Below are positions 10,073 through 10,645 of a DNA stretch of 64,000 nucleotides, piece by piece. The notes under the pieces are model-generated. The model was not told the DNA's origin. It saw only the letters and a program-made list of their open reading frames with translations, and made no database searches. Position 1 is the stretch's first letter. Each line of letters begins with the position of its first letter. A program made the position numbers and the translations under genes. Origin of the DNA: Abditibacteriota bacterium (lineage in GTDB: Bacteria > Armatimonadota > UBA5829); assembly GCA_017445025.1 (NCBI GenBank), contig JAFSVJ010000090.1:156-64155 (forward strand), read 5' to 3'.

Positions 10073-10645
10073 TAAAATCAAAAATCAAAAATAAAAAATC
10101 AAAATTGTAGTGCTTCGCACTACTTTGGTAATCAGGCTTTAATTTTTAATAGTTGGTTCTGTTTTGTTTTAATTTAATGGAAAATACAAATATATTGTAT
10201 AGCATTAGTATAGAATTAGCTTTACGAATTATAGATTATTGTATTGATAAGAATCTAACTAATAATATGAATGTATTATTAAATCAATTAATTAAATCAG
10301 GAACAAGTGTAGGAGCTAATATAAGAGAAGCCAAGAGAGCTTATTCTAAAGAACAATTTAAATATAAATTATCTATTGCTTTAGGAGAAGCAGAAGAAAC
10401 TAAATTTTGGTTAGAATTATTAAATGAGAAAGGTTTTATGTCAAACGAAGTATTTGATATTATTTATAGCAAATGTAGTCATTGTATTGGTATAATTGTC
10501 AATACTTTAAAAAAAATGGATCAAACTAATTAATATTTTTAATTAGTATTACTGAAGAAAGCAAGTTTAAAATATTAGAGCTCGCCATTTAAAGTGGAGC
10601 GATAGCTCCACGATTTTGATTATTGATTATTGATTATTGATTTTT
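10073..10645. mobile_element. Cassette with ~80-bp inverted repeats carrying a four-helix-bundle gene, inserted between atpG and atpD
   Basis: The left arm 10074..10150 and the reverse complement of the right arm 10561..10645 align by eye. Each has a heptad array, then ATCAAAAT(T/C)GT(A/G)G.GC-loop-GC.C(T/C)AC, then TTT..G..GCT.TAAT.TTTTAA. The cassette starts directly after the atpG stop and ends at the atpD RBS. Confidence 0.55.
10177..10533 (+). CDS. Four-helix-bundle protein (23S rRNA intervening-sequence protein / Avd-like family)
   Basis: 118 aa from the ATG at 10177. The central motif LIKSGTSVGANIREA and ..ALGEAEETKFWLELL are typical of the TIGR02436/PF05635 family as I recall it. Confidence 0.7.
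   Translation: MENTNILYSISIELALRIIDYCIDKNLTNNMNVLLNQLIKSGTSVGANIREAKRAYSKEQFKYKLSIALGEAEETKFWLELLNEKGFMSNEVFDIIYSKCSHCIGIIVNTLKKMDQTN

Follow-up and report, generated by a model that had tools for sequence, protein, structure and literature searches.

A recently inserted cassette in an Abditibacteriota ATP synthase operon: a four-helix-bundle gene between inverted heptad arrays

The atpG-atpD insert: limits, arms and protein

The stretch of DNA analysed here (the window) comprises 64,000 nt of contig JAFSVJ010000090.1 (positions 156 to 64,155) in the Abditibacteriota bacterium assembly GCA_017445025.1, and its ATP synthase (atp) operon contains an insert between atpG and atpD. The spacer between the two genes is 586 nt long and has one open reading frame (ORF) inside it (10177-10533), which encodes a 118-aa protein of the four-helix-bundle family known from intervening sequences (IVSs) of 23S rRNA. 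On either side of the ORF stands an arm of ~77 nt, made up of ~4.5 tandem 7-nt units (heptads), a 7-bp hairpin and a tail, with the two arms mutually inverted (Table 1). This combination of gene and inverted heptad arrays recurs as a unit across at least six phyla, as described below.

Relatives were gathered by AtpG similarity, and their contigs were then inspected at the atpG-atpD junction. All AtpG relatives came from metagenome contigs, apart from a single NCBI assembly contig (GCA_024712465.1, AtpG 81% identical); in an AtpG search of 185,579 GTDB species representatives the best identity was 36% (Fimbriimonadales), and no empty site was obtained there. The spacer is 18 nt in two contigs with 95% identical AtpG (L065 and L066) and 12 nt in a third with 81% identical AtpG (L067). 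The empty sites of L065 and L067 contain no heptads whatsoever. Alignment with L065 places the insert at 10074-10646, between the atpG stop and the atpD ribosome-binding site, where 573 nt replace 5 nt of this 95% relative; the junctions read TAAT/AAAATCA...GATTTTTA/AGGAG (slashes mark the limits), compared with TAATGTAATAGGAG in L065. The insert is also present in a second contig, from another assembly, that is 99.94% identical to the window. We conclude that the cassette is a recent insertion into the atp operon, missing from close relatives; insertion polymorphism between related genomes, one of the criteria for MITEs (miniature inverted-repeat transposable elements), was thereby observed. 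The initial annotation, made from the letters alone, had described the 586-nt separation as an insert running from the atpG stop to the atpD ribosome-binding site and had pointed to relatives as the place to look for empty sites; the 18- and 12-nt spacers of L065/L066 and L067, together with the limits from the L065 alignment, bear it out on each count. Its statement that the insert must be transcribed through also stands: the four-helix-bundle gene points in the same direction as the operon, and read-through is therefore required for atpD and atpC. A promoter scan found no sigma-70 promoter-like site on the + strand inside the insert, overall counts being equal to the shuffled expectation.

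A more distant relative (L068, AtpG 71% identical) has a spacer of 483 nt with a different, ORF-less insert (5973-6455), in which ~8 small hairpins of the TTGC-GAA-GCAA type are spaced ~20 nt apart. Because this insert differs in make-up from that of the window, the atpG-atpD junction has been hit at least twice.

The inverted-repeat similarity of the two ends was evident in a blastn comparison within the window (10591-10644 against 10126-10074, 81.5% over 54 nt, E = 4e-6), and 10074-10114 pairs with 10604-10644 over 41 nt with 83% complementarity. On the right side, Tandem Repeats Finder reported a GATTATT array of 4.6 copies at 10612-10642; a 30-nt heptad pattern was found three times against 0.00 expected in shuffles. 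The hairpins of the left and right arms differ by paired substitutions, and among 16 family members the stem of the left hairpin covaries (U-A in 10 and A-U in 6 at one pair; G-C in 15 and A-U in 1 at another). Thus both the inverted repeats and the order of heptads, hairpin and tail had been described correctly at the outset; the claim of a conserved tail ending in TTTTAA needs a minor correction, since the consensus of the arm family is ..GGGCTCTAAATTTTAAGGYTGGCTATGG and the ending is not uniform. The full arms are predicted to form a near-continuous 77-nt duplex of -53.5 kcal/mol, and the heptad parts alone reach -18.5 compared with -6.9 ± 2.4 for shuffles. For the whole insert the folding z is -6.3, with the heptad arrays closing the predicted structure. 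Read on the + strand, the hairpin of the right arm together with the GATTTTGATT behind it looks like a terminator, and a scan flagged both 10594-10611 (+) and 10123-10107 (-) as terminator-like, with the T run interrupted.

The 118-aa protein exceeded the curated cut-offs of both family models, with 72.4 bits for PF05635 (cut-off 33.8) and 81.9 bits for TIGR02436 (cut-off 24). All 10 of 10 invariant columns of a 50-sequence alignment are kept (Q37, S41, G42, T43, S44, A47, E51, K64, E71 and E74), and the conserved polar motif Q..SGTS.GANI.E ... K..AL.EA.ET.YW is present. The closest homologues are no more than 52% identical. An AlphaFold model (predicted local distance difference test score, pLDDT, 92.6) has four long helices and gave template-modelling (TM) scores of 0.85 to 2RLD (BT_0352) and 0.80 to 2GSC (XCC0516), crystal entries with five chains each; the Xanthomonas protein has been described as a homopentameric toroid (PMC4990558). 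The proposed likeness to Avd of diversity-generating retroelements (DGRs) extends to the fold only (TM-score 0.79 to 4DWL_E, with 11% sequence identity and a Foldseek E of 0.085, and 0.75 to the E chain of 8UB7, a DGR ribonucleoprotein), with no sequence-level match. Assignment to an IVS-protein family with an Avd-like fold, as first made, is upheld by these scores. Avd is likewise a small pentamer-forming protein and works on nucleic acid together with another enzyme; near the cassette there is no reverse transcriptase, template repeat or variable repeat, and no reverse-transcriptase family appears in the Pfam listing of an identical 11.9-kb locus (L001). Because no reverse transcriptase is nearby, the cassette is not a DGR component. 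We know of no Avd gene that is bracketed by heptad arrays.

Table 1. Features of the atpG-atpD insert, its flanking genes and the ORF-less elements of the window
Feature	Coordinates	Strand	Basis or remark
Whole inserted cassette	10074..10646	+	L065 5973 = window 10073; L065 5979 = window 10647
Left heptad array, (AAAATCA) x 4.4	10074..10104	+	Tandem Repeats Finder; pairs with 10612-10645
Left arm hairpin, GTAGTGC-TTC-GCACTAC	10107..10123	+	stem pairs covary
Left arm tail, degenerate copy of the family motif ..GGGCTCTAAATTTTAAGG..	10124..10150	+	alignment; blastn against 7116-7178 and 22176-22257
Four-helix-bundle gene, 118 aa	10177..10533	+	PF05635/TIGR02436; no Shine-Dalgarno sequence upstream
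Right arm tail, inverted copy	10567..10593	-	blastn against 22182-22257; alignment
Right arm hairpin, GTGGAGC-TATC-GCTCCAC (+ strand GTGGAGC-GATA-GCTCCAC)	10594..10611	-	
Right heptad array, (AATAATC)n	10612..10645	-	pattern scan, repeat finding
atpG (ATP synthase gamma), upstream flank	9101..10072	+	PF00231, E = 4e-77
atpD ribosome-binding site AAGGAG (10646-10651) and atpD (10659-12059, TTG start), downstream flank	10646..12059	+	
ORF-less insert between atpH and atpA; opens with arm-type heptads, hairpin and tail	7103..7541	+	
Complete ORF-less element: heptads, hairpin and tail, then G+C-rich hairpins, then inverted heptads	22166..22385	+	
ORF-less element, variant heptad (AATGCAA type) at both ends, same hairpin module	31246..31570	+	

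Inverted heptads around related genes in other phyla

The surroundings of related genes were surveyed for the closest homologues on their own contigs, for 18 plasmid-borne genes found by tblastn (from Nostoc, Dolichospermum, Planktothrix, Euhalothece, Gloeocapsa, Pseudanabaena, Bernardetia, Chondrinema, Monoglobus, Treponema and Chlorohelix) and for two contigs of a viral collection. All plasmid and viral-collection loci had tandem 7-nt repeats on both sides of the gene in inverted orientation; in the viral contigs the protein profile detected only two loci, both with inverted heptads. AATTTTG repeats were inverted around a homologue located between the genes for carbamate kinase and ornithine carbamoyltransferase, and GAGGTAG/GAGGTTT repeats around one adjoining an M16 peptidase gene, at a locus that also encodes a protease of the Por-secretion-tail (Bacteroidota) type. 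Over the six phyla and the present lineage, inverted arms flanked the ORF at 23 of 23 loci, with a median length of 33 nt and 72-100% complementarity. A strict detector, which demanded that the period-7 arrays of the two sides be reverse complements of each other, was positive at 10/17 loci and at 0/1369 control positions (Fisher P = 3e-21). A laxer detector counted 39 period-7 arrays in the flanks (5.1 kb), 15 in the remainder of the same loci (45.7 kb) and 28 in unrelated DNA (514 kb).

The sequence of the heptads tracks the protein clade and not the host. GTCGGAG is shared by three loci with 79-83% identical proteins (L116, L120 and L123), AATTCGC by two with 89% (L119 and L121) and AATTCGT by two with 83% identity (L108 and L109), and TTTTAGA occurs both in a cyanobacterium and in a member of the Chloroflexota, where the operon context is the same. 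Contigs that encode an identical protein (L098-L103 and L092-L097) differ in the number and order of their flanking heptads, so the arrays change faster than the gene. L113 and L115, whose proteins are 68% identical, share a GATGAAG-type heptad that runs in opposite directions with respect to the ORF (purine-rich on the upstream side at one locus, on the downstream side at the other), which fits selection on arm-arm pairing over selection on a strand-specific site.

Both neighbours are co-oriented with the gene at 17 of 22 loci (P = 4e-7 against a null of 25%). The cassettes at L107, L111, L113-L115, L117, L122 and L124 sit between adjacent genes of functional operons, and the host gene pairs are RND adaptor/permease, hsdS/hsdR, DISARM drmD/MmeI, csx2/cas1, DUF1156/HEPN gene and accB/accC.

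Two published repeat systems bear on these observations. Xanthomonas genomes contain ~186 GGGAATC heptamer arrays each, mostly of four units and with ~70 convergent pairs, which were reported without any associated gene (Rehm et al. 2015, PMC4692102). Should heptads be part of four-helix-bundle cassettes, GGGAATC flanks would be expected at the gene of XCC0516, the Xanthomonas protein of known crystal structure. This was indeed the case: XCC0516 orthologues lie between accB and accC with GGGAATC arrays flanking them, GGGAATC-GGGAGTG-GAGAATC-GGGAATC upstream and, inverted, CATTCCC-CATTCTC-..-TATTCCC downstream. accB and accC are normally adjacent in a housekeeping operon. With a single Xanthomonas member as the starting point, 3,866 proteins were retrieved at E <= 1e-20. 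In the 23S IVS of Coxiella, which has a 28-bp terminal stem, three tandem GACAGAT heptamers stand upstream of the S23p ORF, their number varies among strains, and cleavage by RNase III falls within the stem, at the first repeat (PMC4990558). Apart from this single-species note, no link between heptamers and the gene family was found in the literature available as open full text; subscription-only papers are outside that scope, and an earlier description may exist there.

ORF-less repeats that share the arms

At least six sites in the window have members of the repeat family to which the arms belong. By blastn, the right arm (10567-10644) is 84.6% identical to 22182-22257 over 78 nt (E = 2e-15), and for the left arm the identity to 22176-22257 is 74.7%; together with the 16 metagenome members described below, these matches agree with the initial annotation, which had assigned the arms to a dispersed family. 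Directly after atpH, an arm unit at 7116-7192 opens the 440-nt, G+C-rich and structured insert between atpH and atpA. L065 keeps both ends of this element around a wholly different interior, and the atpH-atpA spacing is 93 nt in L067 and 88 nt in L068. In the complete ORF-less element the arm unit of heptads, hairpin and tail occupies 22176-22271, and 22340-22371 matches 10104-10073, the left array of the atp cassette, with 94% identity over 32 nt. The element with variant heptads has its arm unit at 31260-31340, and 31518-31561 matches 31303-31260 (86% over 44 nt). Further sites with arm-type termini are 48050-48110 and 49337-49392, the latter partial, and another partial arm unit lies at 42520-42541 on the - strand. 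Here ACAAAATT stands before and TTTTTTT after the hairpin GTGGAGC-TAAG-GCTCCAC, immediately past a gene end. This site resembles an ordinary bidirectional terminator, a hint that terminators may be the source of the arm hairpin module or be mimicked by it.

Outside the window, a hairpin-motif scan of metagenome contigs returned 21 loci, 16 of them clear members of the arm family, with heptads of the types AAAATCA, CAAATCA, AAAGCAT, AAAGCAG and AAAAGCA. One element (L082, 670-1210) spans 540 nt, lacks an ORF and is bounded on either side by a complete arm module; the hairpin of its second arm has the same shape as the other and an entirely different sequence. The arm motif had one chance-like match only in viral contigs. 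In a hidden Markov model (HMM) search of six-frame ORFs no other four-helix-bundle gene was detected elsewhere in the 64-kb window, and none by HMM search in the 22 arm-motif loci (21 metagenome, 1 viral contig). In this lineage the gene-bearing unit was thus seen in a single copy, and the arms in many.

In Rfam, neither the arm nor its G+C-rich companion modules had a counterpart among the described RNA families. At gathering thresholds only tRNA and no rRNA was found in the window, nothing was found at E <= 1 in window 6900-10800, and eight arm-bearing metagenome loci gave only an unrelated group II intron domain in L087. That domain V-VI match (3644-3740, 55 bits, E = 1e-8) lies in a contig of 51% G+C that also has an arm-family copy at 194-218 and may be chimeric.

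Several other repeats were noted in the window. A 66-nt G+C-rich double-hairpin module (CCATCCCCCC..GGGGGACAG) at 15834-15899 is precisely missing from L065; it recurs inverted at 22276-22337, within the complete ORF-less element, and beside heptads at 48063-48110, with compensatory changes in its hairpin. A 159-nt unit rich in small hairpins (AAATTTGC..GCAAATTT, CCGGCTTCGCCGG) stands twice in tandem at 62929-63226 (82% identical) and again at 54840-55059, and the AAATTTGC-loop-GCAAATTT hairpin often adjoins heptad arrays in the metagenome relatives. A 1.86-kb direct duplication of 78% identity (24284-26111 and 26327-28170) presumably represents tandem paralogous genes.

Known parallels, possible mechanism and alternative explanations

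ORF-bearing IVSs of 23S rRNA (Coxiella burnetii, Leptospira, Brucella and Xanthomonas-type) are comparable in size to the cassette (~430-760 nt) and share with it stem-forming terminal inverted repeats that enclose an S23p-family ORF, tandem heptamers beside the ORF with varying copy number (GACAGAT in Coxiella) and a weak or absent Shine-Dalgarno sequence; they are seen as selfish, their mobility mechanism being obscure (PMC4990558). The cassette differs in its host transcript, which is the mRNA of an operon (atpG-atpD) rather than helix 25 or 45 of 23S rRNA, and in its longer arms (~77 nt), with a hairpin and tail module that is shared with ORF-less repeats. Excision by RNase III has been shown for IVSs, in Coxiella with the precursor RNA left unjoined (PMC4990558), and for the cassette we infer it. 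Since the defining location in helix 25/45 of 23S rRNA is lacking, with the architecture otherwise matching, the cassette is not a 23S IVS.

The cassette is also MITE-like in its terminal inverted repeats, its size below ~600 bp, the lack of a transposase (the four-helix-bundle gene being the sole ORF), the many dispersed copies of its termini, its presence or absence among close relatives, its intergenic position and its potential to form a long RNA hairpin. Most MITE criteria thus apply to it, except target-site duplication and the copy number of the gene-bearing form. Unlike in MITEs, the termini are tandem 7-nt units whose sequence varies by subfamily while the ends of one element match, and one form carries a conserved non-transposase gene that is paired with such termini across phyla. 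Ends of the IS200/IS605 type or of the REP/RAYT type (repetitive extragenic palindromes and their associated transposases) were considered and dropped, as such ends have no terminal inverted repeats; so were integron attC sites, retrons and CRISPR or tracr-like repeats, for which partner genes and architecture are absent.

Orphan heptamer arrays (GGGAATC in Xanthomonas, PMC4692102; the short tandemly repeated repetitive sequences, STRR, of cyanobacteria) resemble the arrays of the cassette: they are intergenic and made of 7-nt units, mostly ~4 per array, frequently form convergent pairs, lie between genes of like orientation, vary in length and are transcribed. It is these same GGGAATC repeats that flank the Xanthomonas four-helix-bundle gene, and as a parallel to STRR, arrays of the AATTCGT/AATTCGC type flank four-helix-bundle genes of Nostoc. 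In the papers available as open full text, orphan heptamers are described as quadruplex-forming simple repeats without a link to a gene, whereas here one pair encloses a four-helix-bundle gene.

We consider it very probable that window 10074-10646 is an inserted cassette of this general class, and probable that it is, more specifically, a recently inserted copy of a widespread small cassette consisting of a heptad array, a PF05635 gene and an inverted array. The heptad arrays are taken as part of the gene's own cassette because all 23 loci and the Coxiella IVS show them and because the heptads track the protein clade. In two lineages, the present one and Xanthomonas, the cassette coexists with many ORF-less pairs of the same heptads; the ORF-less elements of the present lineage are more likely derivatives of the gene cassette, or users of the same machinery, than its vehicle.

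The following steps are proposed for such a cassette. It would have no promoter of its own and would be transcribed by read-through as part of the atp mRNA. In the transcript the arrays, here the whole ~77-nt arms, would anneal, so that the four-helix-bundle ORF is looped out and the atpG stop is brought beside the atpD ribosome-binding site; judging from the folding predictions, this stem probably forms. The stem may then be cut by RNase III as in the 23S IVSs, a step to which we give an even chance, and cleavage would free a small ORF RNA, with atpBEFHAG and atpDC remaining as two pieces that can each be translated, which would explain why the insertion is tolerated in an essential operon. 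In the most speculative step, the putatively pentameric protein, the sole product encoded by the element, would read the heptads with one subunit per repeat (~4-5 repeats per arm); the median arm of ~33 nt equals ~5 units. Ring proteins that bind periodic RNA repeats exist, and by this analogy heptad binding is conceivable, if doubtful. Spread of the cassette and the origin of its ORF-less derivatives would be reflected in presence/absence among relatives and in the shared termini.

A number of observations weigh against this interpretation. No target-site duplication can be proven (TA or TAA would be compatible, in an A+T-rich context), and there is no transposase, recombinase or reverse transcriptase near the cassette, the neighbours at the locus being atp genes, a GntR regulator and a pilin-like gene. 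Mobility of the gene-bearing unit in this lineage rests on one presence/absence polymorphism. The 118-aa ORF has no Shine-Dalgarno sequence, though neighbouring genes have one, and we know of no catalytic motif in the four-helix-bundle protein. The right-arm hairpin and U-rich heptads are terminator-like just upstream of atpD and would be harmful if efficient. Mismatches of the arms on the sense strand show no excess of G-U (26) over A-C (19), and selection on RNA pairing is therefore not separable from plain DNA inverted repeats. The loci of the survey were picked by similarity to the window protein and not at random, most are on plasmids, and DGR Avd genes were left out. Finally, a cassette of this kind does not account for the exact 7-nt period.

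Of the alternatives, exchange of cassettes survives best, as a minor possibility. ORF-less inverted pairs would serve as landing pads, and the gene would move between them by recombination or gene conversion over the ~30-nt arrays, with no dedicated transposition. Many ORF-less pairs do share the heptads of the gene-bearing copy, both in this lineage and in Xanthomonas (PMC4692102), the array copy number is hypervariable among identical-protein contigs, and the atpH-atpA element, with its ends kept and its interior different from that of the 95% relative, has the form that recombination at the ends would give. However, the empty sites of L065 and L067 are heptad-free, so that arrays and gene must have arrived together or in unsampled steps, and exchange explains neither the first arrival of arrays at new sites nor the period of 7.

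We regard it as improbable that the gene is passive cargo, that is, an unrelated gene bracketed or captured by local MITE-like repeats, without a part of its own in the movement of the composite by the MITEs' transposase. This was the reading of the initial annotation, which had proposed a gene riding on a local element. In its favour, the gene-bearing copy is greatly outnumbered by the ORF-less family of which its arms are typical members, an arm module can stand at either end of an element that lacks a gene (L082), and no second four-helix-bundle gene was detected in the window or in the 22 arm-motif loci. The comparison across phyla speaks against it. Inverted heptads stood at every locus examined in six phyla, with clade-specific sequences: all 23 loci, Xanthomonas and Coxiella are bracketed by them, in unrelated sequences that track the protein clade, while the controls gave 0/1369, and capture by a different MITE family in each phylum cannot yield a constant 7-nt period.

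A domesticated host gene, that is, a regulator or accessory factor recruited operon by operon with the heptads as operator or translational-control sites, would agree with the co-oriented position inside operons at 17/22 loci, with the downstream array abutting the ribosome-binding site of the next gene and with the frequent occurrence of the gene in restriction-modification, DISARM and CRISPR loci (PMC3936711). We consider this very unlikely, given that the host operons are unrelated in function (atp, accBC, arcC-OTCase, RND efflux, hsd, cas), that the 95% relatives lack the gene in atp, that it is found inside 23S rRNA as well, that ORF-less derivatives are scattered through intergenic DNA and that no PADLOC defence-system model matches the cassette.

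Least credible of all are terminator- or REP-like arms, gene-end elements that stabilise or terminate transcripts and whose inversion around the ORF is secondary: the hairpin module does lie just past the stop of a co-oriented gene at 7116, 10074 and 31260 and past a terminator hairpin at 22176, the hairpin and T7 run at 42520-42541 (-) look like a true terminator and the scan flags the arm hairpins as terminator-like, but this covers the lineage-specific hairpin only, heptads elsewhere being G+C-rich or mixed and still inverted around the gene, and an efficient terminator inside the atp operon is implausible, since between atpG and atpD it would be lethal or strongly polar.

With its IVS-type organisation outside rRNA, its heptad-array termini and its MITE-like derivatives, the cassette has a fair chance of marking a distinct class of minimal mobile element. 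Taken as a whole, the more far-reaching proposal that gene and inverted heptad arrays form an unrecognised class of such elements is tentative. It would have the pentameric ring read the arrays at both ends, one subunit to a heptad, and recruit host enzymes, namely RNase III or, on the model of Avd, a recombinase or reverse transcriptase, and the orphan heptamer arrays of Xanthomonas, of heterocystous cyanobacteria (STRR) and of the present lineage would be non-autonomous derivatives or footprints.

To our knowledge, the huge four-helix-bundle IVS-protein family has neither a known function nor a known means of spread. ORF-bearing 23S IVSs have been called selfish for 30 years without a mechanism, and the heptameric tandem repeats that are over-represented in bacterial intergenic DNA (GGGAATC in Xanthomonas, STRR) have been treated as orphan simple repeats. 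The heptad layout suggests that the protein family, the ORF-bearing IVSs and the heptameric repeats are parts of one system. For annotation, the cassettes split operons and are easily mistaken for operon members, above all in defence loci. Essential operons (atp, accBC) tolerate an insert of ~0.5 kb between cistrons, which implies that harm is limited by some built-in means, RNase III processing at the arm stem being a plausible one. Suitable models, both with solved structures, would be accB-XCC0516-accC of Xanthomonas and BT_0352 of Bacteroides. If gene and arrays are indeed a minimal mobile element, this would explain the origin of ORF-bearing 23S IVSs, the scattered occurrence of a very large protein family and the excess of heptameric repeats that has long been noted in bacterial genomes.

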